DNA of 64,000 bases, from assembly GCA_012365435.1 (NCBI GenBank), contig GCA_012365435.1_4518.1; one strand, written 5' to 3'. The position numbers and the translations under genes were made by a program. Under the pieces are notes generated by a model. The model made no database searches, had not been told where the DNA came from, and saw nothing but the letters and a program-made list of their open reading frames with translations. Below, in pieces: positions 12,129 to 54,747 of the stretch (position 1 is the first letter of the stretch; every line of letters begins with the position of its first letter). The DNA is from a phage.

Positions 12129-13076
12129 TTATTCTGCAAATAATTCAGTAACGTCTGAAATTACTTCATAACGACAAGTACGCATCTTAGCATCACCGTA
12201 GTCAACCGGGATGGATACAACATCACGTGGATGAACTTTAACTTTCACAACTTTATCTGAGCTTGAACCAAAGTGGCGAATATAAGATTTAGCACAAACG
12301 TGGAGACCGCGAGAACAGGTTTGAGTATCATCGTCGTTAACTCGAGTACGAGGCATTGAAACAACTTTACCTGGGGAGTTATCAAATGTACCACTATAGC
12401 AGTCTAAATAGTCCTTACGAACTACTTTCCACGCATAGAAATGACCATCTTCAGTGATTTCAATATCGTTTGCAACCAAGAAGTCGAATAAACGTTGTAC
12501 AGCTTTTTCGCTCGGGTTTTCTAACAGGTTTTCAAGGAACGGCAGGTAGAATTTAAAGTCTTCGCCTTTTTCCATGGAATCAATAATACGGTTAACCAGC
12601 CCTGAACGAATCTCTATACCTTGATAAAATAAACTACCACCTTCAATAGTAACATTACCGTCAACAAACTTACTAATAGCTTTCTTGATGTTAATAAGTT
12701 CGACAGCTTTACTAAGGTTTCCTGCGACCAGATTAGCTTTAATTTCTTCAAAATTTGCATGACTTGATGGGGTCGCATTGTATGCTACGCGTCCTTCAAT
12801 GATTGAAATAAATTTAGATGACGCGTTCCATACGATTTCTGGACGATGACCTGTAATAATAGGTTCATCATTTTCTGGAACTTCTTCGATTACATAAGAG
12901 GCATCGTTTGCTTCAGGGACAACGCCTTCAGCTTTAAAATTCTTAACAATCTTACGAAGAGTATCTGTTGAAATGTCGAAGTAATCGGCAATTTCTTTAC
13001 GAGTCCATTTGCCTGATTCAACCAGGCCGTAAGCTTCTAACTGTTCTTCTTGGGACAAGCATTTGATATTGTACAT
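12129..13076 (-). CDS. rIIB: rIIB protein
   Basis: 315 aa; extensive identity to T4 rIIB as recalled. Confidence 0.85.
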   Translation of the reverse strand: MYNIKCLSQEEQLEAYGLVESGKWTRKEIADYFDISTDTLRKIVKNFKAEGVVPEANDASYVIEEVPENDEPIITGHRPEIVWNASSKFISIIEGRVAYNATPSSHANFEEIKANLVAGNLSKAVELINIKKAISKFVDGNVTIEGGSLFYQGIEIRSGLVNRIIDSMEKGEDFKFYLPFLENLLENPSEKAVQRLFDFLVANDIEITEDGHFYAWKVVRKDYLDCYSGTFDNSPGKVVSMPRTRVNDDDTQTCSRGLHVCAKSYIRHFGSSSDKVVKVKVHPRDVVSIPVDYGDAKMRTCRYEVISDVTELFAE

Positions 13077-13085
13077 AATGTTTCC

Positions 13086-15299
13086 TTATTTGGCCGCTTC
13101 CACGGCCTTCATGAATTTAACGATTTGAGCGACCTGTTCTTTGGAAAGAGTACCACGTCGTCCCATGTATTCTGACACAATATGATAATTGGTTTCAAAT
13201 TCAATAACCATTTTATCATCATTATCGTAAGCATTATCTTTAAGCTTATCGAAAATTTTAGCACACAATTCTAACTTCCTGTTCAGGTCTGTATTAGTAG
13301 CACCTGCGAATCGATTCCATCCCCAGCGATTATTTACTGTTGAGAGTTTTGCAAAGTCTTTACTGATTTCTTTGTTCTTAGAGCTAAAATATTTACTAAG
13401 GAAATTAAGCTCTTCATTACGAGTAATATGATTCAAATAAGGCTGTGCTCTACGACTTGGTGATACATACTCATCATAATCTACTTTATCGATTAGCATA
13501 ATATAGTCATTAATTGATTTTTCAAACAAACATTCTACTTCACCGAGTTTACGAACTTTCTTAGCAATCTGTGGACGAACTACAGTGAACTCTTTAATAC
13601 CTGACAAATCAGCAATACGAGTCAAGAAATTAGAGTCATAGTTCAACCAACCTTTATCTGCGTCAAGACATTCAGCGTTAGAACGATTACGAATTACAGC
13701 ATAACCTTGAATCTCATCAGCTTTACTGGCCGGAATAAAAAGGTCTTCTGATACCCAAACATCTTTTTCGTTCTTGAAGAAACGATGGGCACTCGGTGAT
13801 TTAGGACGAGGCTGCGATGAACGTTCTTTAACTTCAATCCACGGTTTAACCAATGCAAGAATTTCAGAGGTCTTATAAAATTTAAGGCTATCACCAGCGA
13901 AAATAACCTTTAATCGTTCCAGAAGTTTCATTGCAACTTCATCTTCCGGGTTAATGAATAATACGCTACTACCATATCCGGAAGGAACCTTATCAACGAG
14001 TGTTGATGCATCTGTGGAAGTCAAAGCATCGTTCAGAGCACGCATCATTGGTACGCGTCCTTTCACATCATCAATAACAATATCAATATGCTTACGACCA
14101 ATACCTAGCAGGCTATTAATTGAAATAGTTGAAGACGAGCTTCCGCTTTCACGAATACGACGAAGTCGTGGGTCTGAAACGATATCATATACAACACCAA
14201 GGTTGCACCATTCTGGTCCCATTTTAAAACGTTTGTACAACTCAGAATAAGTTAGTTGTTCTTTAGAATATTTCAGTGATTCAATATTAGAACCGGCTTT
14301 TTCCATGTATTTACGAGCAGAGTAACCAAGAGAATCGATTTCACGGAATACATGACGTGGATATTCACAATCAATCCATTTCTTAGAATCTTCAGCAAAT
14401 AATTTTGCATCAATTTCTGCAACGCGTTTATGGATATTTGCTACTGTACGTTTATCAAATGACAATGCTTCACGAGACGGGGCTACATCTAGTTCACCCA
14501 TAGGGAATTTAATATAAGCTGTAGTGCATCGCGTCATCATCCATGTTTGTTCTTTAATAACACTTCCGATTGGATATACAATACCACCATAAACAGCCAT
14601 GATATTACCACGTTCACCCCATGGAGCTTCCTTGGCCAAATATACATCGTCAAATTCAGGAAAGTATTTAATATCTTTAACACCGCGAACTTCTGCAATA
14701 TCACCTAGAGGACGCATAACATATGCAATTTCAGATGCGAACTTTTCAAAATCTTCTGGGTTAACAGGCACAACTACTTCAACGCCGGTACGGTCATCAG
14801 GGCCCATCTTATCTACAAAGGTTGGCTTAATCTGTGGACCGCTGTCATCTTGGTAGATTACGTAACCACGAACTTCACCATTGTGATAAGACGTAAGGTT
14901 AAACGTATCGGTATATGCTAGTGGAGCTTTAGAGCCGAGTCCGAATCCACCAATGAAATCGTTACTCGATGTTTTAGTTGAAGCAAAATATGAGTTATAG
15001 ATTCCTGGCTCTTCGTCATTACCTCGAATGGTGAAATCACTCATACCAGGACCAAAGTCTCGAACTACAAAACGTGGGTCTAAACGACCTGGAGCCTGAA
15101 CAATAAACTTATCAGTGCAACCATTAAGAATTTGCCCATCGATACAGTTTGTGATTAATTCACGTACACAAGCCAGTTCTTTGTTTGTATAAAGGTCATT
15201 AGACAAAATCTTATAAACTTTGCTATTGCCTTGAATAGTGAATGCTGTGCTCTTACCGCCTGAACCAATAATCGTTTCTTTAGCCGTTTCAATAATCAT
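13086..15299 (-). CDS. rIIA: rIIA protein
   Basis: 737 aa; extensive identity to T4 rIIA (LYTNK...ELITN.ID, PGRLDPRFV.RDFGPGMSDF) as recalled. Confidence 0.9.
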   Translation of the reverse strand: MIIETAKETIIGSGGKSTAFTIQGNSKVYKILSNDLYTNKELACVRELITNCIDGQILNGCTDKFIVQAPGRLDPRFVVRDFGPGMSDFTIRGNDEEPGIYNSYFASTKTSSNDFIGGFGLGSKAPLAYTDTFNLTSYHNGEVRGYVIYQDDSGPQIKPTFVDKMGPDDRTGVEVVVPVNPEDFEKFASEIAYVMRPLGDIAEVRGVKDIKYFPEFDDVYLAKEAPWGERGNIMAVYGGIVYPIGSVIKEQTWMMTRCTTAYIKFPMGELDVAPSREALSFDKRTVANIHKRVAEIDAKLFAEDSKKWIDCEYPRHVFREIDSLGYSARKYMEKAGSNIESLKYSKEQLTYSELYKRFKMGPEWCNLGVVYDIVSDPRLRRIRESGSSSSTISINSLLGIGRKHIDIVIDDVKGRVPMMRALNDALTSTDASTLVDKVPSGYGSSVLFINPEDEVAMKLLERLKVIFAGDSLKFYKTSEILALVKPWIEVKERSSQPRPKSPSAHRFFKNEKDVWVSEDLFIPASKADEIQGYAVIRNRSNAECLDADKGWLNYDSNFLTRIADLSGIKEFTVVRPQIAKKVRKLGEVECLFEKSINDYIMLIDKVDYDEYVSPSRRAQPYLNHITRNEELNFLSKYFSSKNKEISKDFAKLSTVNNRWGWNRFAGATNTDLNRKLELCAKIFDKLKDNAYDNDDKMVIEFETNYHIVSEYMGRRGTLSKEQVAQIVKFMKAVEAAK

Positions 15300-15311
15300 A
15301 TTTTTCTCTCA

Positions 15312-15512
15312 TCACAAGTTACGTTTAAAAATTTCTGCTACTTCAAGAAGTTCTTCTTTAGTAGCTGTATCGGTTTGTATTTTATATCGAATTTCTTTAA
15401 AGCGTTCTTTAAAGGACTCTGCTGACTCGATATCAAAAAATCTTTGGATAAGCCGGAATTCCCGGAGCACTGCTTTATCAAAAAGTTCCAAGTCCACGTT
15501 ATACATTCTCAT
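15312..15512 (-). CDS. Small protein rIIA.1-position (66 aa)
   Basis: ORF track; immediately upstream of rIIA on same strand. Confidence 0.5.
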   Translation of the reverse strand: MRMYNVDLELFDKAVLREFRLIQRFFDIESAESFKERFKEIRYKIQTDTATKEELLEVAEIFKRNL

Positions 15513-15604
15513 AATATTCTCTTCAGTAGATTCCTAGAGCACTATTACTAAAGACCATATAATTTATCATCTTATGTGTAATAGTGCCTCAGGCTATTCA
15601 GGAT

Positions 15605-16705
15605 TTACGCTGTGAAGATTTTATCCCACATCGCAACAACTGCATCTCGATTATACTTCTTCCATACTGCTTCAGCACGTTTAACTCGAGCTTCGTATGT
15701 GTCAGTGAATTCTAATACAGCTTTTGTGTAAAGCGCAACTACTTCTTTCTTAGGAGTAGAGGAATCAATTTCTACACGCACAGTATCTGGGTCGTATTCG
15801 AATGTAGCATGAGGATAATCCTTAAAAACTAACTGGATTACAGGGACACCTTTAGAGATGGCTTCAATAGAACTATTCTCTACCGTGCCTGTGTCAGGAC
15901 ACGTATTAATAAGTGCTTTAGCTGTTTTAAGACGTTCCATGATTTCACTGTGTGGAGCATCAATAATAACAGGATATTTAGCTGGTGGTGCCCATTTGCT
16001 TGGACAATAACCAATACCATTTTCGCCTAGTGCTTTAATTGCTTCAAGAGCAACATCAGTGCGACGCATCTTAGTGTCATAACGTTGAGCACTAATAATC
16101 AAATCAGTTGCCGGGAGAACTTCTGGCTTTTCAGACAAACAAATAACCGGGTAGTCATCAGGTTCAAATAATGGATTTTCACGCCAGTAGTCATAATCAA
16201 TTTTGTCAGTAAGAGCTGAAGTCATATGACAATATTTACGTTCAAATTCACGGAATGCTTTAGTAGGAGCATAGCTCTTCCCACCGTTCTTGTGAATCTG
16301 GATAGTCTGATCCCAAATTTGAACAATACCACGAGACACCGGTTCAAACGGCGTAGCCATAAAATTCTTATGAACTTTAGAGAGTCCAGCATCTTTAATT
16401 GCTTGGACAGTTAGTTTAGTCGGTTCCATAGTAACAACAAAATCGTATTCATGGATGCCGGCTAGTTCAACAATCTTACGAGCCATAGTATAACTCATAC
16501 CTAGACTGAATTTAGTCAGATGACCAACAGGATGATGATTAACCTTCCAATCACCAAATGTGTCATTATCAAAACCGATATAATCAATATCGGCACCGAT
16601 AGAAACTAAATATTTCAACACATTTAAATGTACTGCTTCAAGACCACCTTGTACACGTTCTGGGTTAAATGGGACCGCACGAGATGGGATAAACATAACT
16701 TTCAT
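15605..16705 (-). CDS. Putative glycosyltransferase (GT-B-like), candidate DNA hmC sugar transferase
   Basis: 366 aa; GT-like C-terminal block (GVPVIQLV...); occupies the slot where T4 has gene 60/mobA; no alpha-gt/beta-gt elsewhere in window. Confidence 0.55.
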   Translation of the reverse strand: MKVMFIPSRAVPFNPERVQGGLEAVHLNVLKYLVSIGADIDYIGFDNDTFGDWKVNHHPVGHLTKFSLGMSYTMARKIVELAGIHEYDFVVTMEPTKLTVQAIKDAGLSKVHKNFMATPFEPVSRGIVQIWDQTIQIHKNGGKSYAPTKAFREFERKYCHMTSALTDKIDYDYWRENPLFEPDDYPVICLSEKPEVLPATDLIISAQRYDTKMRRTDVALEAIKALGENGIGYCPSKWAPPAKYPVIIDAPHSEIMERLKTAKALINTCPDTGTVENSSIEAISKGVPVIQLVFKDYPHATFEYDPDTVRVEIDSSTPKKEVVALYTKAVLEFTDTYEARVKRAEAVWKKYNRDAVVAMWDKIFTA

Positions 16706-16711
16706 AATTAA

Positions 16712-16749
16712 GCCTTATTAAAATTAAAATGAAGCTCCTGAAGGAGCTT
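16712..16749 (-). terminator. Terminator downstream of gene 39
   Basis: 7-bp stem aagctcc/ggagctt with 4-nt loop followed on - strand by AUUUUAAUUUUAAU. Confidence 0.5.
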
Positions 16750-16763
16750 AGGACATCTATCAA

Positions 16764-18584
16764 TTAACCAAGCATCCAGTCTTTACGGAGTTCAGGGTCG
16801 TTACCCATGAGCATTTCAAATAGTTCTTTCCAATTTTCAGGAAGTTTAACTACGTCGTACACAGGGTTTTGAATCATTTCTTTATATTCATCCCGCTGAA
16901 GTGAGCCCAATCCCTTGATGTATCGAATACTATGCTTAGGCAGTGTATCTTTAACTTCTTCATACTCAGCTACAGTATAAAACCATTTTTGAGTTTTGCC
17001 AATTTGTGCAATAATTACGGGTGTTTTAACAAAGCGAATACGTCCTTGTTCAAACAATTCAGGCCAATTACTAAAGAAAGCAAGCAAAGCCGGATAGATA
17101 CTTCCAAGACCGTCGTGATCTGCATCAGTCATAATTGCAATATTACGATAGTTTGTATTCTCTGCCTTTTCACCAAGAATAAGACCTGTGATAGCACAGA
17201 TATCGAATAACTCTTTGTTCTTCATCATATCAGCATATGACATACCCCAGCTATTCATCACCTTACCACGTAATGGGAATCCACCGTGTAGTTCACGGTC
17301 ACGAACATCAATGAGATAACCAATTGCCGAATCACCTTCTGTTAAGAACAATGTCGTATCTGCATCTTTACCACATTGGTTAGCTTTAATATGCTTATGA
17401 ACCTTAGCTTTAGTTGCCTTTTTAGCTGCTTTAGTTTCTGCAGCCTTTTCTGCCGCCAATTTACGAGCTAATGCTGCTTCAACAATAGGCATAATCAAGG
17501 CTTCATTTTTAAGAAGTGCCTGAGCAATTTTCTTAGCATCTAATTGGATATGATTACGAATATCACCATACGTTGACGTTAAACGTTCTTTAGTCTGAGA
17601 ATCAAAACGCATGTTGCTCATGTCTCTAATAAACATCAACATTGTGAGACATTCTTTAACACGAGCTTTAGTGACTTCAATACCCTTATATTTCTTTTTA
17701 ATACCCGGCAAAAGATGTTCGCAGATATCGTCCATTACACATTCAACATGATGTCCACCATTTTTAGTATGGATGTTATTCACATAAGTTAAATGACGGA
17801 AGCCATCTGGTGATGTTGTGAATGCTATAGAGACTTTATCATTTTCTTGAATGATGTTATCTTCGCCAAATTGTTTAGCAAATCGTTTAAAATTACCATC
17901 GACCTTTTTACCATTAAATGTGAACTTGATATCAGGATAAACGACTGCCAATGTTTGAAGTCGGTCTAAAGTAATATCTAAATAAATTTGAGATAAATTA
18001 TGCTCTTCAAATGAAGAGAAATCAGGAGTGAAGATTACTTTAGTGCCTTTACCTTTAGATTTCTTAGAAGACCATGATTTGTTTTCCATTCCGTTTGAAC
18101 AGTTAACAGTGATTTCATTTTCGCCATCTGACGTGATGCCTGTAAACAACGTAGAGAAGATATTAGTTAAACTACTCCCGACGCCGTTCATACCACCAGT
18201 CTTGCGTTCAGAATCATCACCAAAGTTACCACCGGCCTTTGGAATAGTCCAGGCTGCTACAGGACCAGGAATTTGTTCACCCGTTTGGTCGGTAACTAAA
18301 CCTTGAGGAATACCACGTCCGTTATCTTCCACCGAAACTTGATTATTTTTAATTTGCACATCAATTTTATTTGCAAACTTAAATGATGTACGAATAGCTT
18401 CATCAACCGAGTTGTCAATAATCTCATCGATTAATTTAACCAGACCAGGAACATATTCAACTTGTTGATATTTACCAAACAAAAAACGCTCGTGGGCTTC
18501 TTTAGCAGAAGAACCAATATACATGCCACTACGTTTCTTAATATGTTCTACATCTGACAGTACCTTAATTTCATTTTTAATCAT
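16764..18584 (-). CDS. 39: Topoisomerase II large subunit gp39 (intact, unsplit)
   Basis: 606 aa GyrB-like ATPase; single continuous ORF as in T2/RB69 type rather than T4 split 39+60. Confidence 0.9.
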   Translation of the reverse strand: MIKNEIKVLSDVEHIKKRSGMYIGSSAKEAHERFLFGKYQQVEYVPGLVKLIDEIIDNSVDEAIRTSFKFANKIDVQIKNNQVSVEDNGRGIPQGLVTDQTGEQIPGPVAAWTIPKAGGNFGDDSERKTGGMNGVGSSLTNIFSTLFTGITSDGENEITVNCSNGMENKSWSSKKSKGKGTKVIFTPDFSSFEEHNLSQIYLDITLDRLQTLAVVYPDIKFTFNGKKVDGNFKRFAKQFGEDNIIQENDKVSIAFTTSPDGFRHLTYVNNIHTKNGGHHVECVMDDICEHLLPGIKKKYKGIEVTKARVKECLTMLMFIRDMSNMRFDSQTKERLTSTYGDIRNHIQLDAKKIAQALLKNEALIMPIVEAALARKLAAEKAAETKAAKKATKAKVHKHIKANQCGKDADTTLFLTEGDSAIGYLIDVRDRELHGGFPLRGKVMNSWGMSYADMMKNKELFDICAITGLILGEKAENTNYRNIAIMTDADHDGLGSIYPALLAFFSNWPELFEQGRIRFVKTPVIIAQIGKTQKWFYTVAEYEEVKDTLPKHSIRYIKGLGSLQRDEYKEMIQNPVYDVVKLPENWKELFEMLMGNDPELRKDWMLG

Positions 18585-20536: not shown

Positions 20537-20956
20537 TTATGCGAAAGCAGCTGGGCTATATTTTTTGATTTGGAATTCAGGAACTACCATGAACTGACCA
20601 GCGAAAACAATGTTATAAAGCTTAACACCATCTTCTACCCAACGGTCGCTAATAAATCCGGCGATTTGCTTAGTTTTCCATGGCGTTCCATCAGTTGCCG
20701 CAGCAATAGTGAATTCATGGTCTTTTTCAACAGAAACTGATCTGCATAGTCCCCATTTGAACGCTTTTTCTTCTGGTTCAATGAATTGACTTTTAACGTA
20801 ACCAATGTTACCATCGGCGTCACGAACTTTAACTTCGTTACGTCCAAAAACTGGATCACTCACAGAAAGAACTTCAACCAACTTCCCGGCAACTTTAGAG
20901 CGAGAAGCAACAGATACATATACGTAATCACCTGTAGAGAGATTTACAATATTCAT
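20537..20956 (-). CDS. Hypothetical protein, paralogue family member A
   Basis: 139 aa; shares SRSKxAG.LVEV and GFISD.WVEDG.KLYNIVF motifs with the next two ORFs. Confidence 0.55.
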   Translation of the reverse strand: MNIVNLSTGDYVYVSVASRSKVAGKLVEVLSVSDPVFGRNEVKVRDADGNIGYVKSQFIEPEEKAFKWGLCRSVSVEKDHEFTIAAATDGTPWKTKQIAGFISDRWVEDGVKLYNIVFAGQFMVVPEFQIKKYSPAAFA

Positions 20957-20965
20957 AATAATTCC

Positions 20966-21421
20966 TTAAGCTTTACGAGGAGACACATAGCGAGTGATTT
21001 CAGATTCTTTAACAACTCGGAAGTCACCTAAGAATACGATATTGTATAACTTTTCACCATCTTCAACCCATTGGTCACTAATGAAGCCGCACATAGTATC
21101 AGTTTTGCTTGGATAACCGTATTCATCGATGAAGTCAAATTCTTTATCAGTCTGGAATTCAACACCTTTACACAAGGCCCATTTGAACTGTACATTAGGT
21201 TCAGTAGAAGCAAAATGAGCACTCACATGAGTTTCCAAGAATTTAGGACTTACGTAAGCGTACTGAGTTTCAGTTTTTCCGGAACTAGGAATGATTCGAA
21301 CTTTAACTTCTTTAACACGTCCAGTACCATTAGTACGAAGTCCGACAACTTCAACCAGACGACCTGCAGCTTTAGAACGAGATGCAGATGATACACGCTT
21401 AATTTCACCAATAGTAATCAT
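20966..21421 (-). CDS. Hypothetical protein, paralogue family member B
   Basis: 151 aa; same motifs as member A. Confidence 0.55.
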   Translation of the reverse strand: MITIGEIKRVSSASRSKAAGRLVEVVGLRTNGTGRVKEVKVRIIPSSGKTETQYAYVSPKFLETHVSAHFASTEPNVQFKWALCKGVEFQTDKEFDFIDEYGYPSKTDTMCGFISDQWVEDGEKLYNIVFLGDFRVVKESEITRYVSPRKA

Positions 21422-28547: not shown

Positions 28548-28710
28548 TTGCAACCCAATCAACCATATGTAGATGGTCTGATAATTGACTAACATGCTGA
28601 AGCTGATTAGACAGGAGTTTACAAATAAGCTCACTGTTATCATTTTTAAATAGTTGGTCAATACGTTTCTTATGAGCTTTCTTAAGCTGACGTTTATTTA
28701 AACGAGCCAT
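28537..28710 (-). CDS. Small basic hypothetical protein (57 aa)
   Basis: Not in ORF track; ATG overlaps gene 56 stop (TAATG). Confidence 0.35.
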   Translation of the reverse strand: MARLNKRQLKKAHKKRIDQLFKNDNSELICKLLSNQLQHVSQLSDHLHMVDWVANET

Positions 28711-29231
28711 TAATAACCTCGGTCTTGACGAGCAAAGTTTTCAGCATTCTTCAGATAATACAGTTTAAAGATTTCTTCAGCCGAAAGACCTATACCTTGG
28801 AACATATTCAGAACGAAATGGAGAATATCAATCATTTCAAACTTAATTTCCAGTTGGTCTTCAGGAGTCAGTTCATCGATACGACGATTTCGATATTCAG
28901 CATGTTGTGCTTTCCAAGGTTTCCATACAGCAGATGCATCTTTTTCACCATTGCTCATACCACCAAGTGAAGTCAGCAGTTCACGGAATTCATCATCAAT
29001 ATAATCTTTCTGATTACGCAGCCAATCAACAACATCACCGGCAGTAGCCAATTCATCAGGATGTTTGTTATGTTCAGGCTTGTCATTAGCCAGACGAACC
29101 TGTAAAGATTTCTGCATATCAAGCATTACCTGCAGTGGGTCTTTATCTTCGTGAATCAGAGCATTAAAATAAGCTTCTTCTGCTTTATCAACACCAGAAA
29201 TAAGTTGTGAACATTCATTAAAGTGCGCCAT
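28710..29231 (-). CDS. 56: dCTP pyrophosphatase gp56 (MazG-like)
   Basis: Matches T4 gp56 as recalled; start set to ATG (MAHFNEC) with AAGGA RBS; track start upstream is TTG. Confidence 0.75.
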   Translation of the reverse strand: MAHFNECSQLISGVDKAEEAYFNALIHEDKDPLQVMLDMQKSLQVRLANDKPEHNKHPDELATAGDVVDWLRNQKDYIDDEFRELLTSLGGMSNGEKDASAVWKPWKAQHAEYRNRRIDELTPEDQLEIKFEMIDILHFVLNMFQGIGLSAEEIFKLYYLKNAENFARQDRGY

Positions 29232-29320
29232 TATTTTTCCTTTCAATTCAGTAATAAGTGAGTTAATTCTAACATTAATTTTATAAAGCGTAATAAATAA
29301 TAGGTAACTAAGGAGATATT

Positions 29321-37260: not shown

Positions 37261-37809
37261 TTAACGAGCCCATTTAATGATTTCTGTAATCAAATAATTA
37301 CGTTCGCTTGCATTAAATCCTATAACTTTGTTAGCACCATCATGATTAAGTAATTGATACGTTTGGATTTTGTTATGAATTGCAAACTCTTCAAAATATG
37401 AAATGACTGTATTAAAACCGAATGAAGACAAAGTAATAAGGTCGTCTTCAAAACTTTCAGTCATTTCGTTACGTGTTAAAATAATTGTGAACACATCATG
37501 GTTTTGGCAAAGACGAACATAATCCTGTTCATAAACATCAAGAACCGAGTCCGCATCTTGTCGAATACGTCCATAAACCCAGTTACTAATATATCCACGG
37601 TCTAACAGATAAATCTTAGTAGGGTCTAAATAATTCAACATCGTTTCGAAACAACCAACTTCATTTCGAGACTTAACATCGAAACGTCCATCAACTGTTC
37701 GTTTAGGGAAATCAATCTTTACATATCTTTCACTAATTTCCATTATGTCATTAATGAAAGTTGTTTTACCGGCATTATCCGGGCCATCTACTAAAATAAT
37801 TTTAGCCAT
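37261..37809 (-). CDS. P-loop kinase, thymidylate/cytidylate kinase-like
   Basis: 182 aa; Walker A VDGPDNAGKTT; LLDRGY resembles DRY lid motif of NMP kinases; sits in the T4 beta-gt slot. Confidence 0.55.
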   Translation of the reverse strand: MAKIILVDGPDNAGKTTFINDIMEISERYVKIDFPKRTVDGRFDVKSRNEVGCFETMLNYLDPTKIYLLDRGYISNWVYGRIRQDADSVLDVYEQDYVRLCQNHDVFTIILTRNEMTESFEDDLITLSSFGFNTVISYFEEFAIHNKIQTYQLLNHDGANKVIGFNASERNYLITEIIKWAR

Positions 37810-37810: not shown

Positions 37811-38710
37811 TTATTCCTCGATTACGACATCTTCGTATTTAGGTATATTATACGGCGAAGAAATTAAAGCGTTAAAGTAGATGAACTCACCAAGACCTGG
37901 ATGGAATACTTCTTCAGGATTTTCGAAATATTGAATCTTCGGACGTCCTTTAAGAATTTGATAGTACTCAGTTTTAGTTGGTTTAAAAATTCGAATCAGC
38001 GCTTCTTCAGGATACTTATTTCTGTCAAAGCTATTATTTGGATCGGTTATATAAAGCGGTTGACCTAATTGAATTGCGCATTCAACCACTTGTTCAAAAC
38101 GATAACACGGGTCACTAATTCGAAATGGATGAAAAATACCATCTAGATGAATAGGAGCCAAATCACCTACAAGACGCTGCATGACGGAAGGACGTATAAC
38201 TTTCTGCGTTACGATAATCTTATTACCATCGGCACCTGCGTTAACCAGCACTTCCTTTTGACGTTCATTCAACACAGTAGTTTGAAGTGAACGATTAACA
38301 GACAACATGTCGGTTTTTAAGAATTCATCAATATAAAAACGTGGTTTATTAGGGTCTGCAGTGATATTGAAATTGAATTCTACGTCAAAAGCGCCATCAT
38401 ATCCAGTGATATCTGTGATTAGAAAATCACAATCATAATAAGCAATTAATGAATCAACCACAAATTCATTTTCAGACCAGAAATATTTACGAGTGTTATA
38501 CGCGTTATCTTTATACCATAATGGAACAAACTTAAATTCCGGGAAAAGACGTTCACATTCTTTAATATCAGATGCATTACGTGGATATGTAATCACATCA
38601 CCTGGATTAGCACGGTGCAAATGAAGTTGGAAGTTGCCATCCTTAAGGATAGCATACTGTCCAGTTTCATAAGACCGCATACTCAAGATTGGTACGCGGA
38701 AAATAGCCAT
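37811..38710 (-). CDS. Hypothetical protein (299 aa) in the T4 beta-gt slot
   Basis: ORF track; no recognisable similarity to T4 beta-glucosyltransferase. Confidence 0.5.
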   Translation of the reverse strand: MAIFRVPILSMRSYETGQYAILKDGNFQLHLHRANPGDVITYPRNASDIKECERLFPEFKFVPLWYKDNAYNTRKYFWSENEFVVDSLIAYYDCDFLITDITGYDGAFDVEFNFNITADPNKPRFYIDEFLKTDMLSVNRSLQTTVLNERQKEVLVNAGADGNKIIVTQKVIRPSVMQRLVGDLAPIHLDGIFHPFRISDPCYRFEQVVECAIQLGQPLYITDPNNSFDRNKYPEEALIRIFKPTKTEYYQILKGRPKIQYFENPEEVFHPGLGEFIYFNALISSPYNIPKYEDVVIEE

Positions 38711-39426
38711 TAGTCAAGGAATCCTTTAACATAATCAAAATCACGTTCAAACACATGGGCACTTACCATGGTATGAGTATAATCACCAACTTCTACGCCG
38801 CATTCGTTAGCGATATAATGAAGTAATTTTCCTTGGAGATAAAAATCCAACTGCATAACAACAGCACAGTTCTGAGAACGCATATGACAGTGGGTATAAA
38901 GCTTACCATCGCGAATATAATAAGTCACTGAGTCAGTACATGGATATTCAAGTGTTTCGTCCGAATCAAGCAAAGCCTGATCAGAACTTTCTAGAATTTG
39001 GAACACAACTCTTCGAGAGTTAGGTTTCTCTTTAAGTTCTTTTAGAAGAGCTGGTAATTGGGCCGCAATGCGAGGACCATAGAAAGTGTTGAAGTTCGCC
39101 GGCAAAGCGTCTGATTTAGGTTTAGAAATAAATTTAGCGACATTAGGATATGCCTTAAACGCTTCTTCTGCATCAGTACCACCAGAAATCATAAACTTCC
39201 AGAAGTCTTCGGCATATTCATAAGAGATGCGGTTAATACGTGGGTCGGTCATTTTGAATGATGATGGATTGTCAACAACTACTGTCATGGACCTGATTTC
39301 ATTACAACGTCCAATACGAGAATCAGTTACGAATTCAGGATTTTCTAAAATTTCACGATTGACTGCTTTAAATGCGGCTTGAAAATCTGCGGCTTTGATA
39401 TATTTCATTGTGTTATGTTTTCCCAT
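38710..39426 (-). CDS. 42: dCMP hydroxymethylase gp42 (thymidylate-synthase fold)
   Basis: 238 aa; block YPCTDSVTYYIRDGKLY...MRSQNCAVVMQLDF parallels FMCTNTVQYLIRDKK...MRSNDVVFGF of T4 gp42 as recalled; GAGGT RBS. Confidence 0.65.
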   Translation of the reverse strand: MGKHNTMKYIKAADFQAAFKAVNREILENPEFVTDSRIGRCNEIRSMTVVVDNPSSFKMTDPRINRISYEYAEDFWKFMISGGTDAEEAFKAYPNVAKFISKPKSDALPANFNTFYGPRIAAQLPALLKELKEKPNSRRVVFQILESSDQALLDSDETLEYPCTDSVTYYIRDGKLYTHCHMRSQNCAVVMQLDFYLQGKLLHYIANECGVEVGDYTHTMVSAHVFERDFDYVKGFLD

Positions 39427-39468: not shown

Positions 39469-39708
39469 TTATTTGAATTTCTTGGCAATGTTGATATAAC
39501 GTAAAGCTTCAGAATCTATACTTCCAAGAACACTATGAAGGAATGCATCAGTGTAGTATTCCAATTGAACAGGTTCTTTAATCACTTTAGCCGCTTTGGT
39601 TTCAAACAGGCCCATAAGGGCCTTTTTAAGAATTTGTTCGTTAGTGTTCAGTTTTATAGTCAAAATCTCTTCATTAAGTTGGTGGTTAAAAGTTTTTCTA
39701 GAAATCAT
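39469..39708 (-). CDS. Hypothetical protein (79 aa), not Imm-like
   Basis: ORF track; hydrophilic, unlike membrane protein Imm that occupies this slot in T4. Confidence 0.45.
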   Translation of the reverse strand: MISRKTFNHQLNEEILTIKLNTNEQILKKALMGLFETKAAKVIKEPVQLEYYTDAFLHSVLGSIDSEALRYINIAKKFK

Positions 39709-40865
39709 TCCGGGTACCTCAAAGCGTCATCAGAGTTAGTTATATCAATAATAGATATAGAGTTTTCTGATAACCCATTTTTAGATAACTGACGTTTATA
39801 ATATCTTTCACAATATGTACACGTCGTCCCGCAGATTTCATTAGCACAATCGAAATCTGGATGTCTGAACCACCTTTTTTCTAAAAAACCGTCTAACAAT
39901 GAGGTTTCAATATTTACTGTATGTGAAAACTCAGTCTCATTTTCAAGAGTGAAAATAGTCTCTAAAGGCTTCCACAGTTCTAACAAATTACCTTCAAACT
40001 TTTCAGAAGCGTATGCTTCAAGAACTTTCAAAATGTAGTCTGTGCTACCTGTACGTCCTGAAACTTTGAATTGAGTGATACCAATATCATTATAAAGTTT
40101 CAAATCTTGAGGACGAACAAAACGAGTTCTCAGCCAGTTAAATGGGTCTGTATCACGAGCTTTAATACAGTGCTGCATAGGATATCCATTTAAGGATTTA
40201 GCATCATCAGCGGTAACATCAGTACTATGGAAAATATAGCAAGAGTCACGATAGCTACAATGTGTTGTATACCCTTTACCAGCATTAGAACAGAACTCAT
40301 TTACAAGAACTTCAAATATTATATTGTTCTTATTGCAAAACTCTGCTGCACGCTTCAGGAAAGAAACTGAACGGTTCTTATGAATTCCGCAACAGACTTT
40401 TTTGATGTTATATTGGTCGTGCAAGTATTTGATTTGAGTTACAGCATCAACATGTAGAATTGTTGAAACTTCAATCTCAATGTCTTTATTGACTTCACGA
40501 ACAATTTCCATAACAACAGGGTTAGCGATAGTAATACGCCATACGCCTATTGACCAAAGATACTGAACATAATCCTGAATAGCTTTCTTCTTCCACTCAA
40601 CTAGTTCTCTTTTTGAACCAGGATTTATCGTGTTGAGTGTATAGTTAAAGCAAATACCTAATTCGTTACAACGTTTAACGTAGTCTTCTAACATCTTTTT
40701 GTCAACGTCAGGAAGCCTAAAATCAGGTCTGGCTGCTACAAAAGCCATTTCTCTTGTAGAGCCGTATACTTCGTTTATCAAGCTATTAGGATAAGTTTTA
40801 TTGAGCTCTACGATTTTATCAAGAAGAGCTAAATCAAAATTCGTTCCGATTTTAAAAGTATTCAT
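39705..40865 (-). CDS. U32-family-like Cys-rich enzyme (putative Fe-S dependent; function unknown)
   Basis: 386 aa; blocks NPVVMEIVRE and EIEVSTILHVDAV resemble DPGLIMLVRE / PIHLSVQANAV of U32 proteins; Cys clusters VCCG..FCS..HCS..SC and C-x4-C-x3-C-x2-C. Confidence 0.5.
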   Translation of the reverse strand: MNTFKIGTNFDLALLDKIVELNKTYPNSLINEVYGSTREMAFVAARPDFRLPDVDKKMLEDYVKRCNELGICFNYTLNTINPGSKRELVEWKKKAIQDYVQYLWSIGVWRITIANPVVMEIVREVNKDIEIEVSTILHVDAVTQIKYLHDQYNIKKVCCGIHKNRSVSFLKRAAEFCNKNNIIFEVLVNEFCSNAGKGYTTHCSYRDSCYIFHSTDVTADDAKSLNGYPMQHCIKARDTDPFNWLRTRFVRPQDLKLYNDIGITQFKVSGRTGSTDYILKVLEAYASEKFEGNLLELWKPLETIFTLENETEFSHTVNIETSLLDGFLEKRWFRHPDFDCANEICGTTCTYCERYYKRQLSKNGLSENSISIIDITNSDDALRYPE

Positions 40866-40921: not shown

Positions 40922-41323
40922 TTATAGATTCGGTTTATATGATTTAAATGTTTCGAATTCGCCTTTATTCATAAGAGCTTTGAATTCGTCAGGACGCATA
41001 GCTTTGTCGTCGATAATCCAATCATATACTGGTTTATGTGTTAGCAAATTATGGTACTTCAAGCCAATGTTTGCCAAGTTCTGAATCAGACTTGGGAGAA
41101 TGTCAATTGCTATACGACCAGGACCTACTGACTTCATACCACGAGCAGTGTAAAGCGTTATGGTATGCCCTGCATCATACAGGGCATTAATGGCAGACAC
41201 CATTTCGACGTCCGGTTTGAAGTTCACGTAATCACGATTGTTATTCCACTCTGTTATACAATCATCGACATCAAAACAAAGATTAAGCATGTTTTCTACA
41301 CGGTGCATTAGATTCGTTCCCAT
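40922..41323 (-). CDS. HAD-superfamily small phosphatase (KdsC-like)
   Basis: 133 aa; HAD motif I FDVDDCIT near N-terminus; coordinates from ORF track. Confidence 0.55.
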   Translation of the reverse strand: MGTNLMHRVENMLNLCFDVDDCITEWNNNRDYVNFKPDVEMVSAINALYDAGHTITLYTARGMKSVGPGRIAIDILPSLIQNLANIGLKYHNLLTHKPVYDWIIDDKAMRPDEFKALMNKGEFETFKSYKPNL

Positions 41324-42993
41324 TGATGAGTGATATCGCCACCGATTGGACGATAGGAAACACCAGTTTCTTTATCAGTTAGTACCCATTTACCAGGATT
41401 TTTTGTAATCAGAGTAGCCGTTACAGGTTCTGCTACGTCATAACTAATAGAGCCGTCTTGAAGTACACGGCCCATGTTACGTAATTGCTTAGTCAGAAGT
41501 TCCATACCTTTATAATATGCGGCTACCGCTTTAAGTGGATTATTCTTGAAATAACCACCTAATGCAATCCAGATAATTGCTACTGCCAAATGATGATACT
41601 CGTTAAACGAACTCATCTTTCCATATTTGTAAACTAATGGATTGATGTTAATAGTCACATTACAAGTTGTTTCATCAATAGTAAACTGTCCCCAGGTCGG
41701 ATTAGCATTGAATTCATCATAACCTGAAACAGCATAAAGCACTTTAGCTTCATCATATAATTTTGGCCCGTAAATCTTGGTTTCACCAAAATATCCACGA
41801 GGGTCGATAAACTTGACTTCGCCGTTATCAGTAATCATAGTATTACTGAAGTTCGGGTCACCGTGAATAACAGAGTACTGTCCCTGAGAACGATTATGAT
41901 AACGAATAAGGTGTTCTAAAGCTTGTTTCAGCATTGGCTTCAGACGTCCAATCTTAGTGTAGTTCACGTGTGTGATTTTACCAAATGAATCAATCAATGG
42001 CTGAATGCTTTCACAACGATCAATAACTTTCGTATAGAATTCTTTAGTGAAATCACGACGAACAGTTTCAGGACTTACAAAATAAGTGTCTGTGCTGAAT
42101 TTCAGTGCATCTAAAATTGCATCAACAATTTGTGGACGAGCAAGACTTGATTTGGATTTAATATATTCAAATGCTGGCTTACCTTTAATACGTTCCATTT
42201 CAAAATTATTTTCATTTACCGAAACTAACTGAGGAACTGAATCTGATTTCACTTTCAAATACCATGAAATCTCATCTTTTTGAAGAGCTCGACCTTGTTC
42301 GGTTAACGCGAATTTAGTTACAGTTTCTTCGCCAATTTCAACTGCATTAAAACTACGATTAAGTTCACGAACTTCATGGGCCTTTTCAAGTTTAGGCATA
42401 TCACCTAAATCAATTAGATTCATAAGCTCTGATTTATTGAATGCACTGCCGTAAAGGAATTCTACGAAATCACGTCCTTTGCAGTATTCATGAATTTCCT
42501 CATCAGTAGAACCCATGTAGAATTCCCAGTCTTTGAACTGATAAATTCCTACAACATTACCGCCTGTTGAACCTACGTTAGTGATATTTTCACCATCGAA
42601 ATTATATCGACATTCATCACCCTTAACATAGATTGCGTTAACATTCCAAGACCATGAACCAAAATCAGGAATAATATCACACCAGTTAACAATTACGTTA
42701 TGGCCATCTAAATCTTTGTATAATTTAGCAAGAGCATAAGCAGAACCATACGCTTCATCAACTGTACGAATAGTCACATTGAACCCTTCTTGCTCGCAAT
42801 AAGCTCGAACAGTTTCAGCAAATTTTGAATGAACTACTACAATAATTTCATCTGCGCCAAGGTCAGAATAAATTGTATACAAATTGCTCAGAATAGTGTC
42901 TTGTTTATAGTTAACAAGAACTTTTGGAATATGATGCGTTATTGGATACAAACGAGTTGCCAGTCCAGCACCAAGAATAACAGCTTTTTTCAT
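41308..42993 (-). CDS. Bifunctional sugar-1-phosphate nucleotidyltransferase / APH-like sugar kinase
   Basis: 561 aa; N-terminal MKKAVILGAGLATRLYPIT (RmlA/MurU-type NTase); C-terminal VIHGDPNFSNTMI and FIDPRG (APH/choline-kinase-type catalytic motifs). Confidence 0.7.
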   Translation of the reverse strand: MKKAVILGAGLATRLYPITHHIPKVLVNYKQDTILSNLYTIYSDLGADEIIVVVHSKFAETVRAYCEQEGFNVTIRTVDEAYGSAYALAKLYKDLDGHNVIVNWCDIIPDFGSWSWNVNAIYVKGDECRYNFDGENITNVGSTGGNVVGIYQFKDWEFYMGSTDEEIHEYCKGRDFVEFLYGSAFNKSELMNLIDLGDMPKLEKAHEVRELNRSFNAVEIGEETVTKFALTEQGRALQKDEISWYLKVKSDSVPQLVSVNENNFEMERIKGKPAFEYIKSKSSLARPQIVDAILDALKFSTDTYFVSPETVRRDFTKEFYTKVIDRCESIQPLIDSFGKITHVNYTKIGRLKPMLKQALEHLIRYHNRSQGQYSVIHGDPNFSNTMITDNGEVKFIDPRGYFGETKIYGPKLYDEAKVLYAVSGYDEFNANPTWGQFTIDETTCNVTININPLVYKYGKMSSFNEYHHLAVAIIWIALGGYFKNNPLKAVAAYYKGMELLTKQLRNMGRVLQDGSISYDVAEPVTATLITKNPGKWVLTDKETGVSYRPIGGDITHQWERI

Positions 42994-43174: not shown

Positions 43175-43810
43175 TCATTGTTCGCCTCGTAACATGGCAC
43201 CTAGTGCACCGCCTGGGTGGAACTTAAGGAAGTCATTAGAGGTAAATCCACGTTCAGACGAAAGGTTGATAGCGAACGTATCGATAAGCGCTAACAACAA
43301 TGTAGTGGACATGGTCGGAGCCAGAGAATTCTCATCAACCTCTACCGCGATGCCTGTACAGAAAGAGTAATCAAAAAGGGCTTCATTTTCTTGCGGAATG
43401 TCCGGGTTACAATGCAACAGAATCTGTTTGACATTTGGACGAATCATTTTAAGATGCTTAGCCACGCCTATCATTTCTTCAGTTTTACCAGAACGACTAA
43501 TATGAATCAACACATCATTAGGCGCAATGAATCCTGCATCACCGTGAGAATAATGCCCGGTGTTCAAGTACATACTTGGGATACCGAGTGAAGCAAATGT
43601 CTCAGAAGCTTTAGTTGCAATATTAGCATTCTTACCAACACCTGTAATAATTACTCGGCTTTCATAATTACTAAGTCCAGGGCGTCGAAGAGTTTCTAGA
43701 ATAGCATTATAACGAGCAGGGTTTTGACTAATTACTTTGGCCATAGCGGCCAAAGAAGAAGCTTGTTTTATAATTGCGTCAATAGCGATAGTAATAGGAG
43801 TAGTTTTCAT
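43175..43810 (-). CDS. SIS-domain sugar-phosphate isomerase, KdsD/GutQ-like (putative D-arabinose-5-phosphate isomerase)
   Basis: 211 aa; ITGVGKNANIA...ISRSGKTEE...LAPTMSTT...FHPGGALG mirrors the KdsD SIS domain motifs as recalled; no CBS domains. Confidence 0.7.
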   Translation of the reverse strand: MKTTPITIAIDAIIKQASSLAAMAKVISQNPARYNAILETLRRPGLSNYESRVIITGVGKNANIATKASETFASLGIPSMYLNTGHYSHGDAGFIAPNDVLIHISRSGKTEEMIGVAKHLKMIRPNVKQILLHCNPDIPQENEALFDYSFCTGIAVEVDENSLAPTMSTTLLLALIDTFAINLSSERGFTSNDFLKFHPGGALGAMLRGEQ

Positions 43811-51951: not shown

Positions 51952-52186
51952 CCTCGATACATGCTTCAGCCATTTTAAGAATAGAGCCAGGAGTATCGTT
52001 GTCCATTATATTAAAGCTAAATTCAATAGCCCAGTCGGTACAGACATGAACGGCTTTAACTTCATTGCCTTCAACGCGTAATGGCTCAATCCAATACTTG
52101 ATGGTGTCCTCGAATCCATCATCATCTTTAACGTCTATTTCAACTTCAAGCCCGAGCCCAGCATTGTTAAATTCATCTAAAGTCAT
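51929..52186 (-). CDS. Hypothetical acidic protein 46.2-position (85 aa)
   Basis: ORF track. Confidence 0.5.
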   Translation of the reverse strand: MTLDEFNNAGLGLEVEIDVKDDDGFEDTIKYWIEPLRVEGNEVKAVHVCTDWAIEFSFNIMDNDTPGSILKMAEACIEDAYNDED

Positions 52187-53990: not shown

Positions 53991-54203
53991 TTATCTCATT
54001 AAATTAAAATAAAAACGTCCATCCTCTTCAATACAGAACTCGTACTCAACTGGAGTCCCATTTATTGAAAATGACACGTCATGTGGGTTCAAAGGGTCGA
54101 TGTCAAAATTAATTTTAAATTCACGACCCAACAGTTTTACCAAATAAGGGATTGCTTCGTCAAAAGGTTCTTCTAAGTAGTTAGAGATGTCAATTGTCAT
54201 CCT
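53991..54203 (-). CDS. Hypothetical protein (about 70 aa)
   Basis: ORF track with start moved to internal ATG to avoid overlap with gene 55. Confidence 0.4.
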
Positions 54204-54747
54204 CATATAAAAAATCCAAACTAGGCGAATCGCTAACAACTTCCTTCTTTTCAGCCCCAGGAGCTTTATAAGCGGATTCTTCATAATGCGTCATTTTATC
54301 GTAGATGTCTTGAATAAACGTTTCATCTACCAACGCTACCATATCATCGTCATGACTGTCGTAGACATTATGAACGAAGTAACTATATTTCTTTGCAACT
54401 TCCTTACGTTCTTTTTTGATACGTTGGACAAAAGCATTAAAACAAGCTCGAGTTATGTATGCATGTGGGTTATTGTACTTAGTTTCGTCGAAATTATGAA
54501 GTCCCTTAATAGAGGCTTCAATCCCATCTGCAATCATCTCCTGCTTCCAAGACTGGGTATATCCTGAAAAGTTGAAACGTTTGGACAGGCCTTCGGCGAT
54601 AAGCATAATTGCTAAACCGATGGTATCATTCTGACGAATAATTTTGTTTGGGTCTTTATTATTTAGGAGCTCCTTTTTCCACTCGATTATAGCGGCGAGA
54701 AGCTCTTTATTATTCACATAGTTATTTTTAGGTTTTTGTTCAGTCAT
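54190..54747 (-). CDS. 55: Late sigma factor gp55
   Basis: From [17 protein letters not shown] 185 aa; long identity with T4 gp55 ([43 protein letters not shown]). Confidence 0.85.

Follow-up and report, generated by a model that had tools for sequence, protein, structure and literature searches.

A 366-residue GT-B glycosyltransferase of an RB69-like phage as the probable second arabinosyltransferase of 5-hydroxycytosine DNA

The phage DNA analyzed here, a stretch of 64 kb (64,000 nucleotides; hereafter the window) that stems from a Mosigvirus, i.e., an RB69-like phage, carries between rIIA.1 and gene 39 the gene for a glycosyltransferase of 366 amino acids (Table 1). We consider it likely that this GT-B enzyme is a chain extender, a beta-(1->3)-arabinofuranosyltransferase that adds the second sugar to DNA in which 5-hydroxycytosine (5hoC) is already arabinosylated. 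The gene is a known one, and this reading of its function has already been proposed in the current literature: its RB69 counterpart, ORF003c, was put forward as an arabinosyltransferase in 2018 (PMC6024577), papers from 2025-2026 refined this proposal, and RB69 gp3 is labelled 'beta-arabinosyltransferase 2' in published work. Hence, the idea of an earlier sequence-only reading of the window, in which the protein was regarded as the transferase that puts a sugar on hydroxymethylcytosine (hmC), was not new. The value of the present analysis is corrective; the base is to be read as 5hoC and not as hmC, a second glycosyltransferase is present, and the gene is a known candidate whose structure has been solved.

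An AAGG Shine-Dalgarno-like motif is positioned about 10 nt upstream of the open reading frame. The deduced protein matches the phrog_8302 profile over its full length (1-366 of 366, E 1.7e-221), its family is represented in 212 phage records (tblastn), and comparison with four relatives yielded dN/dS values of 0.04-0.06; the reading frame is therefore a real gene under strong purifying selection and no chance ORF. Pfam and PHROG profiles bear out both neighbors that the sequence-only reading had named, rIIA.1 and an intact gene 39 of 606 amino acids. The latter contains the DNA_gyraseB, HATPase_c, and TOPRIM_C domains of Pfam, in agreement with the RB69 annotation; residues 1-604 correspond to the topoisomerase large-subunit PHROG (phrog_543), and we regard residues 452-604, which match phrog_7229 ('DNA topoisomerase II'), as the gp60-equivalent end. 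In T4, the gene order is rIIA - rIIA.1 - 60 - 60.1 - mobA - 39. The previously suggested 'gene 60/mobA slot' is hence correct as to the T4 60/60.1/mobA region, but the precise site, on the 3' side of the fused topoisomerase gene, is the T4 rIIA.1/60 junction and not the place of the mobA split. RB69, Bas47, HY126, and AV111 all share the order rIIA.1, glycosyltransferase gene, gene 39. The stop codon of gene 39 and the start codon of the glycosyltransferase gene are separated by a 58-bp spacer with a terminator-like hairpin; no sigma-70-like promoter was found in this spacer, and an Rfam scan of positions 15200-17000 gave no match. Many relatives possess a homing endonuclease gene at the site of this spacer.

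Table 1. Positions of the genes and other features of the window that are considered in the text.
Feature	Position	Strand	Basis or remark
rIIB	12129-13076		neighbor region
rIIA	13086-15299		neighbor region
rIIA.1	15312..15512	-	Pfam T4_RIIA1, E 5.5e-30; downstream neighbor of the 366-aa glycosyltransferase gene
366-aa GT-B glycosyltransferase gene	15605..16705	-	ATG start; ORF list; orthologue of RB69 ORF003c/gp3 and HY126 glycosyltransferase
Terminator-like hairpin	16732..16749	-	AAGCTCC-TTCA-GGAGCTT with T-rich tail; spacer between gene 39 and glycosyltransferase gene
Unsplit gene 39, 606 aa	16764..18584	-	upstream neighbor of the 366-aa glycosyltransferase gene; equivalent to T4 gp39 plus gp60
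dCTPase, gene 56 homologue (dCMP supply)	28710..29246	-	phrog_173 'nucleoside triphosphate pyrophosphohydrolase', E 5.9e-45
Thymidylate-kinase-like nucleotide kinase (RB69 gp45 equivalent)	37261..37809	-	phrog_761, E 5.8e-45; RB69 synteny
Second GT-B glycosyltransferase 'GT1', 299 aa (RB69 gp46:47, DLP3 gp79 equivalent)	37811..38710	-	
Thymidylate-synthase homologue, 5-hydroxy-dCMP synthase (RB69 gp48 equivalent)	38710..39426	-	Pfam Thymidylat_synt
U32-peptidase-like protein (RB69 gp50 equivalent), inside the cluster	39705..40865	-	Pfam Peptidase_U32; phrog_5757
133-aa ORF at RB69 gp51 position (HAD-type phosphatase, AfhF-like)	40922..41323	-	synteny with RB69 only
561-aa bifunctional sugar-1-P nucleotidyltransferase/kinase (RB69 gp52:53, AfhE-like)	41308..42993	-	Pfam NTP_transferase and kinase-like matches; phrog_4098
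Arabinose-5-phosphate isomerase (RB69 gp55 equivalent)	43175..43810	-	Pfam SIS; phrog_5670, E 4e-116

RB69 ORF003c/gp3 (NP_861693.1), whose gene is also found in about 150 Mosigvirus genomes, is the same gene as that of the window: it likewise encodes 366 amino acids, occupies the same site with rIIA.1 on one side and the fused gene 39 on the other, and its product is 97.5% identical. The nine substitutions that separate the two proteins (E16D, H160Y, A164G, E176A, P182A, D183E, S191N, I231A, and T327I) all spare the positions that are invariant in the family. In phage HY126, the orthologue is 97.3% identical and synteny is conserved, while GenBank lists the Bas47 gene bas47_0105 with the product 'putative hmC-arabinosyltransferase'. 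Two crystal structures of the HY126 glycosyltransferase, 9IQZ (apo) and 9IR0 (with UDP), both released on 2025-07-16, represent essentially the window protein (98% identity, full length). These structures probably stem from the work of He et al. (2026, Nat Chem Biol).

The GT-B-like features pointed out in the sequence-only reading are borne out by fold recognition. Foldseek retrieved 9ir0 ('phage HY126 glycosyltransferase with UDP') and 9iqz as the best matches (98% identity, E 4e-48), followed by BshA, PimA, MshA, GtfA, and other GT-B enzymes at a probability of 1.0; 240+ GT-B chains were found at E <= 1e-3. Our own AF2 model, built on a six-sequence alignment, reached a pLDDT of 60, so that the evidence for the fold rests on the solved structures; the model was used to retrieve these by Foldseek, not to reason about the active site or about a retaining or inverting mechanism. 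The GT-B fold, i.e., two Rossmann-like domains that enclose a cleft, is thus confirmed through the public HY126 structures (98% identity) without and with UDP, and the title of entry 9IR0 ('with UDP') documents UDP binding by this near-identical protein. Residues E94, R125, Q207, R208, D210, R214, T274, E276, E281, G286, and H299 are invariant in the family, and G20 and G21 are nearly so. The C-terminal GVPVIQLV block noticed earlier comprises residues 286-293 and is conserved, with G286 and Q291 being invariant and P288, V289, and L292 nearly invariant. The putative donor-site elements of the C-terminal domain, namely E281 (ribose), the basic residues R208 and R214 (diphosphate), and the G286-x-P-V block, are all invariant or almost so.

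At the level of sequence the family stands apart. Pfam and NCBIfam scans of the 366-aa protein matched no family (Pfam: none at E <= 1), and a Pfam scan of 15 family members gave two weak GT4-conflict matches only (E 0.003, below the cut-off). When the family profile was compared with the PDB sequences, 9IQZ was the sole real match and the rest was noise. The nearest relative outside of the family, P0016, is a Pfam Glycos_transf_1 protein, and its alignment spans the E281/GVPV block. As noted before from the sequence, there is no resemblance to the T4 DNA glucosyltransferases: BLASTP against alpha-gt and beta-gt found nothing at E <= 10, and hhalign of the family profile with T4 alpha-gt gave a probability of 0.4%. 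Likewise, HHpred similarity to the T4 enzymes was reported at the fold level only (Thomas 2018). Tblastn of alpha-gt and beta-gt against the window gave matches at E > 1 only, and between gp47 (52183-53202) and gp55 (54190-54765), in the slot of alpha-gt, there are only ORFs of 57-107 aa; the T4 transferases are indeed missing from their own slots, but that of beta-gt is not vacant, for it holds the 299-aa GT-B gene. Comparison of the 366-aa and 299-aa families by hhalign found nothing either. What relates the two glycosyltransferases of the window to each other and to those of T4 is the fold alone. T4 alpha-gt (GT72) and beta-gt (GT63) resemble the 366-aa protein as phage GT-B enzymes that use a UDP-sugar, act on a modified cytosine of DNA, and protect against host nucleases; they differ in that they transfer glucose from UDP-glucose to the hydroxymethyl group of hmC as the base-proximal sugar.

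Judged from the encoded synthase, the acceptor base in the window phage is 5-hydroxycytosine, not hmC. The ThyA homologue is identical to RB69 gp48 at 235 of 238 positions (98.7%) and carries the D169N signature, i.e., Asn at the position of ThyA-D169, where T4 gp42 keeps Asp; it is hence of the 5-hydroxy-dCMP synthase type. This activity was demonstrated experimentally for RB69 gp48 (PMC13326640), and MS and NMR showed that the DNA of RB69 and NP lacks a methylene bridge (PMC13326640, PMC13390438). RB69 DNA contains beta-D-Araf-3-alpha-D-Araf-5hodC along with the mono form (PMC13326640), and in the DNA of the Mosigvirus NP the mono and di forms occur at 1:4 (PMC13390438). Transfer of a sugar onto hmC, as envisaged in the sequence-only reading, is in keeping with the ara-hmC of the earlier literature (PMC6024577) and with the GenBank product name in Bas47, but in view of the synthase and of the DNA chemistry the chance that it is correct is negligible.

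The pathway that we envisage would start with the hydroxylation of dCMP by the ThyA homologue; the product would then be phosphorylated and incorporated, so that 5hoC would replace cytosine. The donor would be a UDP-sugar, most likely UDP-D-arabinofuranose provided by the isomerase, the kinase/pyrophosphorylase, and the phosphatase of the window's own cluster (Table 1); the AfhE-like RB69 gp52:53 enzyme makes UDP-arabinofuranose, and the function given for the gp51-type homologue comes from the same study (PMC13326640). A first alpha-arabinofuranose would be attached to the 5-OH, most likely by the 299-aa GT-B enzyme. The 366-aa protein, which would be a soluble enzyme made early in infection and would act on polymerized DNA, would then most likely attach a further, beta-linked arabinofuranose at O3 of the sugar already present to yield beta-D-Araf-(1->3)-alpha-D-Araf-O5-dC. 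The pentose donor expected in the sequence-only reading thus fits in the form of an arabinofuranose nucleotide, but the sugar concerned is most likely the second and not the first.

Two opposite linkages are present in the RB69 disaccharide so that two enzymes are needed, and the window contains exactly two GT-B genes. The 299-aa gene, which adjoins the synthase gene, had been overlooked; it is a better candidate for the base-proximal step than the 366-aa gene, which the sequence-only reading had ranked best. With 349 phage records across numerous genera and at least 138 protein clusters, its family is present in every arabinosylating lineage found, and it is encoded beside the synthase in those records with annotation listed. 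The 366-aa family comprises 5 protein clusters (15 matches among 1.84 billion representatives) and is confined to phages with the arabinosylation cluster; Mosigvirus has one copy, about 21 kb away from that cluster, Acinetobacter phages have two, inside of it, and tblastn of phage records detected none in Shewanella or Serratia phages. Most phages with the synthase cluster keep the 299-aa enzyme without any member of the 366-aa family, and parsimony therefore assigns the universal step to the universal enzyme. The 366-aa family is restricted to phages with more than one arabinose and its copy number matches the number of extra sugars, a match based on the handful of phages whose DNA chemistry is known: no copy in Thanatos, where cytosines carry a single pentose (PMC12838424), one in RB69, NP, Bas46, and Bas47 with up to two sugars, and two in DLP3 with three.

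Direct assays in the accessible literature are those of the DLP3 paralogs gp76 and gp77, which are 40.5% and 42.6% identical to the 366-aa protein over the full length and have all of the invariant residues in common with it. Together, they use UDP-Araf to attach a third arabinose to the DNA of RB69 in vitro; neither is active alone, both being needed for the one addition, and no single DLP3 glycosyltransferase acts on bare 5hoC DNA (PMC13326640). This requirement for both paralogs in one step hints at a hetero-complex as opposed to one enzyme per sugar. In contrast to the window gene, those for gp76 and gp77 lie inside the arabinosylation cluster, and their products, which have to act jointly, provide the third sugar. 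The two are 57.5% identical to each other, and 457 of 500 bootstraps place them as sister groups; as lineage-specific sister paralogs, they make the window protein co-orthologous to both. One-to-one orthology with gp77, as implied by the published labelling, is rejected in view of the pairing of gp76 with gp77 in the tree.

Features shared with family GT4 bear on the order of the two steps. The fold neighbors PimA, MshA, and BshA are GT4 enzymes (Pfam Glycos_transf_1), to which P0016 provides a bridge in sequence; the 366-aa protein resembles them in its N-terminal GG loop, an R-x5-R pair (R208/R214) where GT4 enzymes have R/K, and an E-A-x-x-x-G-x-P-V ribose-binding block. It is unlike them in that it remains without a Pfam or NCBIfam match, failing to reach the Pfam gathering score for Glycos_transf_1, and in that its acceptor would be DNA-borne. 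The EX7E motif is not preserved: E281 supplies its second Glu, T272 occupies the position of the first in the alignment with P0016, and E276 gives an E-x4-E spacing instead. GT4 enzymes are retaining. A GT4-like retaining enzyme that uses UDP-alpha-D-Araf would be predicted to form an alpha product, that is, the first linkage of the disaccharide and not the second. This argument is limited by the missing first Glu of EX7E and by its dependence on the anomer of the donor.

We regard it as unlikely that the 366-aa enzyme places the base-proximal alpha-arabinofuranose on the 5-OH of 5hoC and that the 299-aa enzyme adds the second sugar. Besides the retaining-type features, the original proposal for RB69 ORF003c (PMC6024577) and the crystallization of the protein as 'phage HY126 glycosyltransferase' speak for this order. 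No 299-aa family member is known to have glycosylated 5hoC DNA in vitro; DLP3 gp79 was inactive on it (PMC13326640), a Thanatos member reportedly behaves as a UDP-xylose pyrophosphorylase, and a base-proximal transferase has so far been demonstrated for no phage, according to the accessible literature. Against it stand the many phages, among them Thanatos with its one pentose, that have the 5hodCMP-synthase cluster and the 299-aa enzyme but lack the 366-aa family, and also the DLP3 paralogs, which act on DNA that bears arabinose already but, taken one by one, not on 5hoC DNA. The inactivity of gp76 and gp77 on their own and the failure of every single transferase on 5hoC DNA would also suit a complex that installs both sugars, either of the 366-aa protein with the 299-aa enzyme as an obligatory partner or of a homo-oligomer with two activities. 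We hold this to be quite improbable; phages with the 299-aa enzyme alone are numerous so that it generally needs no partner, and the two genes are far apart in Mosigvirus. Very improbable is a target other than DNA, such as a nucleotide precursor, a component of the host envelope, or a protein. The structural neighbors have lipids, thiols, and natural products as their substrates, but the family occurs only in phages with the arabinosylation cluster, its DLP3 members modify DNA in vitro, and a second transferase is required for the disaccharide of the DNA; the published RB69 searches offer no third glycosyltransferase candidate.

For the chain-extending beta-arabinosyltransferase that we favor, the closest functional analogue is found in phages T2 and T6. 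Their beta-glucosyl-alpha-glucosyl-hmC transferase is a second enzyme that produces gentiobiosyl-hmC. Its acceptor, too, is a sugar already present on a DNA base, and it modifies most but not all sites. It differs in the use of glucose in place of arabinofuranose and in the hmC base, and the likeness is one of function, with no demonstrated homology (see also PMC13390438).

In RB69-like phages, arabinosylated 5-hydroxycytosine gives protection against restriction enzymes, CRISPR-Cas, and DNA glycosylases and at the same time makes the phages a target of type IV systems, BrxU being one of them; how many sugars are present reportedly alters these outcomes. A deletion of aat in Bas46 is reportedly contained in the work of Mahler et al. 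(2025, Cell Host Microbe). The assignment of each sugar to its transferase is relevant to phage engineering, to the sequencing of these genomes, and to the design of phage therapy. In this context, we see a small chance that the 366-aa enzyme is a selective or partner-dependent transferase, or a true base-proximal one whose activity would overturn the two-step assignment. In the former case, its GT4-like scaffold of the retaining type without the first Glu of EX7E may form a beta-furanosyl bond with inversion on a sugar carried by the DNA, and the ratio of about 1:4 between mono and di forms may reflect a selectivity for sequence context or strand that tunes which host defenses see the DNA.

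The glycosyltransferase gene that the sequence-only reading had described between rIIA.1 and an unsplit gene 39 was confirmed at that location (see the table), in DNA that is 95–98% identical to that of Mosigvirus (RB69-like) coliphages. Its 366-amino acid product is 97.5% identical to RB69 ORF003c/gp3, proposed from HHpred and Phyre2 analyses as the GT-B arabinosyltransferase of RB69 (Thomas et al., 2018; PMC6024577). The orthologue of the BASEL phage Bas47 is labeled "putative hmC-arabinosyltransferase" in its record. The idea that this gene encodes a DNA-arabinosyltransferase is thus not new; it was put forward in 2018. A PDB sequence search retrieved a 98%-identical chain, 9IQZ/9IR0, whose entries (released 2025-07-16) are entitled "phage HY126 glycosyltransferase", one of them with the addition "with UDP". 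HY126, a Mosigvirus whose gene order matches that of the window, is reportedly the subject of a 2026 Nat Chem Biol study by He et al. At residues 288-289, within the GVPV block, the translation of the HY126 GenBank record (L004 2501-3601) reads L-G, where the 9IQZ chain and all relatives have P-V, and this is probably an error of the genome record.

Features of the glycosyltransferase (GT) locus and of the arabinosylation cluster
Feature	Coordinates	Strand	Remarks
366-aa GT ORF	15605..16705	minus	ATG start, 366 aa
rIIA.1	15312-15512		neighbor of the 366-aa GT gene; Pfam T4_RIIA1, E 5.5e-30
Topoisomerase II large-subunit gene (gene 39)	16764-18584		other neighbor of the 366-aa GT gene; 606 aa
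Terminator-like hairpin	16749-16732		in the 58-bp spacer following gene 39
Homing endonuclease gene, Escherichia phage AV111	L008 (AV111 record) 2249-3046		Pfam NUMOD3, weak HNH_4
Kinase	37261-37809		arabinosylation cluster
299-aa ORF (second GT-B gene)	37811-38710		arabinosylation cluster
ThyA homologue	38710-39426		arabinosylation cluster
U32-like protein (RB69 gp50)	39705-40865		arabinosylation cluster
ORF at RB69 gp51 phosphatase position	40922-41323		synteny only
Nucleotidyltransferase/kinase	41308-42993		arabinosylation cluster; 561 aa
Arabinose-5-phosphate isomerase	43175-43810		arabinosylation cluster

That the ORF is a genuine gene is shown by a full-length match of its product to phrog_8302 (E 1.7e-221), by tblastn matches in 212 phage records and by a dN/dS of 0.04–0.06 against four relatives. 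Its start codon is preceded, at a distance of about 10 nt, by an AAGG ribosome-binding motif. The gene 39 product matches the large-subunit PHROG as well as phrog_7229 ("DNA topoisomerase II"), the latter over residues 452-604, which we take to be the gp60-equivalent end; since both are matched in a single ORF, gene 39 is unsplit. The assignment to the gene 60/mobA slot holds in so far as the 366-aa gene falls within the corresponding interval of T4 (rIIA - rIIA.1 - 60 - 60.1 - mobA - 39). Strictly, however, it lies past the 3' end of the fused topoisomerase gene, a position equivalent to the T4 rIIA.1/60 junction and not to the mobA split site. The spacer (16706-16763) contains only the hairpin and no homing endonuclease gene; a promoter scan found no sigma-70-like promoter in it, and an Rfam scan gave zero family matches at the locus. 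We infer that the gene belongs to a block of early/middle genes and is probably transcribed from promoters that lie upstream. In many close relatives, a 265-aa homing endonuclease gene sits exactly between the GT gene and gene 39, an echo of T4 mobA in the same neighborhood; of the 30 best DNA matches to the locus, 15 are split into two aligned parts and carry about 780 additional bases.

Pfam and NCBIfam scans of the 366-aa protein gave zero matches, and a profile of its family found 9IQZ alone among PDB sequences. We accept the GT-B fold mainly because the structure of this essentially identical protein has been solved. Fold recognition bore out the GT-B-like features seen earlier: with a poor AF2 model (six-sequence alignment; pLDDT 60), Foldseek ranked 9ir0/9iqz on top (E 4e-48), followed by BshA, PimA, MshA, GtfA, SpnP and UDP-GlcNAc 2-epimerase, plus over 240 further GT-B chains. 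The family is tiny, with only 15 matches in an exhaustive HMMER search that covered 1.84 billion representatives; the nearest protein outside it, P0016 (Pfam Glycos_transf_1), shares 35% aligned identity over residues 248-352. E94, R125, Q207, R208, D210, R214, T274, E276, E281, G286 and H299 are among the invariant residues, G20 and G21 are nearly so, and the C-terminal GVPVIQLV block noticed by the sequence-only reading (residues 286-293) is conserved throughout the family. Resemblance to GT4 enzymes lies in the GG loop, the R-x5-R pair and the E-A-x-x-x-G-x-P-V block, but the initial Glu of the GT4 EX7E motif is replaced by T272.

The whole arabinosylation cluster is present between uvsX and the DNA polymerase gene, in synteny with RB69. 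Its ThyA homologue is identical to RB69 gp48 at 235 of 238 positions, and has, like gp48 and gp80 of the Acinetobacter phage DLP3, an Asn where E. coli ThyA has D169; T4 gp42 retains Asp there. Both gp48 and gp80 were shown experimentally to make 5-hydroxy-dCMP, with D169N as a predictive signature (Lee et al., NAR 2026; PMC13326640). Judged by this signature, the base of the window phage is not hmC, the sugar acceptor originally envisaged, and its synthase is of the 5-hydroxy-dCMP type. MS and NMR of RB69 DNA revealed beta-D-arabinofuranose (Araf)-(1->3)-alpha-D-Araf in ether bond to C5 of 5-hydroxy-dC, together with a mono-arabinosyl form (PMC13326640); in the Mosigvirus NP, mono and di forms occur at 1:4 (PMC13390438). 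The window encodes the 299-aa GT and the 561-aa nucleotidyltransferase/kinase each in one uninterrupted ORF, while the RB69 reference record splits each in two (046c/047c and 052c/053c), which Lee et al. blame on sequencing errors (PMC13326640). The DLP3 cluster lacks a gene at the position of the U32-peptidase-like protein, tentatively a "sugar or heterocycle reductase" in RB69 (gp50; PMC13326640).

Two sugars of opposite anomeric configuration lead one to expect two enzymes, in agreement with the two GT-B genes of the window, those for the 366-aa and 299-aa proteins; counterparts of T4 alpha-gt and beta-gt are indeed missing (tblastn, all E > 1), with small ORFs only in the alpha-gt slot between gp47 and gp55. 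The different spread of the two families separates their steps. By tblastn, the 366-aa family occurs in 212 phage records (five protein clusters), with one copy in Mosigvirus and two in Acinetobacter phages, and none was found in Shewanella or Serratia phages of the phage collection. The 299-aa family is present in 349 phage records (at least 138 protein clusters), among them Mosigvirus, Dhakavirus, Klebsiella, Enterobacter, Edwardsiella, Yersinia, Pectobacterium, Erwinia, Serratia, Proteus, Providencia and Acinetobacter phages, and Shewanella phage Thanatos; it adjoins the synthase in the records with annotation listed. Among phages of known chemistry, the copy number of the 366-aa family tracks the number of sugars: none in Thanatos with one pentose (PMC12838424), one in RB69, NP, Bas46 and Bas47 with up to two sugars, and two in DLP3 with three (PMC13326640). 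When combined in vitro, the two DLP3 proteins gp76 and gp77 transfer a third arabinose from UDP-Araf onto RB69 DNA, and no single DLP3 GT was active on bare 5-hydroxycytosine DNA (PMC13326640). In a neighbor-joining tree of the family, gp76 and gp77 fall in groups that cluster together (457 of 500 bootstraps), and the Mosigvirus protein branches outside this pair, so that it is co-orthologous to both tested paralogs; specific orthology to gp77 was accordingly rejected.

Collectively, phyletic pattern, copy number, DLP3 biochemistry and tree support the published reading of RB69 gp3 as "beta-arabinosyltransferase 2" and of two putative transferases in sequence, the second encoded between rIIA and the topoisomerase gene (PMC13390438). 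We consider it probable that the 366-aa protein is a chain extender adding the second arabinose. The sequence-only reading correctly saw a GT-B enzyme that serves the DNA-sugar pathway and uses a pentose donor, but was not right about the base and probably not about the step. A base-proximal role is unlikely, even though the 299-aa family protein of Thanatos reportedly behaves as a UDP-xylose pyrophosphorylase (PMC12838424) and the GT4-like, retaining-type character of the 366-aa enzyme does not obviously suit the beta linkage of a chain extender, a misfit that could be explained by the anomer of the donor or by the changed EX7E region. Complex-dependent or non-DNA roles jointly take up the small remaining probability. 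According to a citing paper, Bas46 deleted for "the arabinosyltransferase Aat" is viable and sensitive to a plasmid-borne defense (PMC13216743), which would fit a dispensable accessory transferase if Aat is the 366-aa orthologue.

One record named "Tegunavirus" matches the 366-aa family, and other Yersinia phages are in the 299-aa family list only. Relatives of the 299-aa GT (P0125 and P0127; 37–39% identical) come from metagenomic contigs 349 kb and 356 kb long, so the range of this presumed base-proximal family may reach beyond T4-like phages and include jumbo phages or large elements of other kinds. Elsewhere in the window, the adjacent ORFs 20537-20956 (139 aa) and 20966-21421 (151 aa) have similar C-terminal halves, look like tandem paralogs and match by position the RB69 MotB-like genes RB69p010 and RB69p011.
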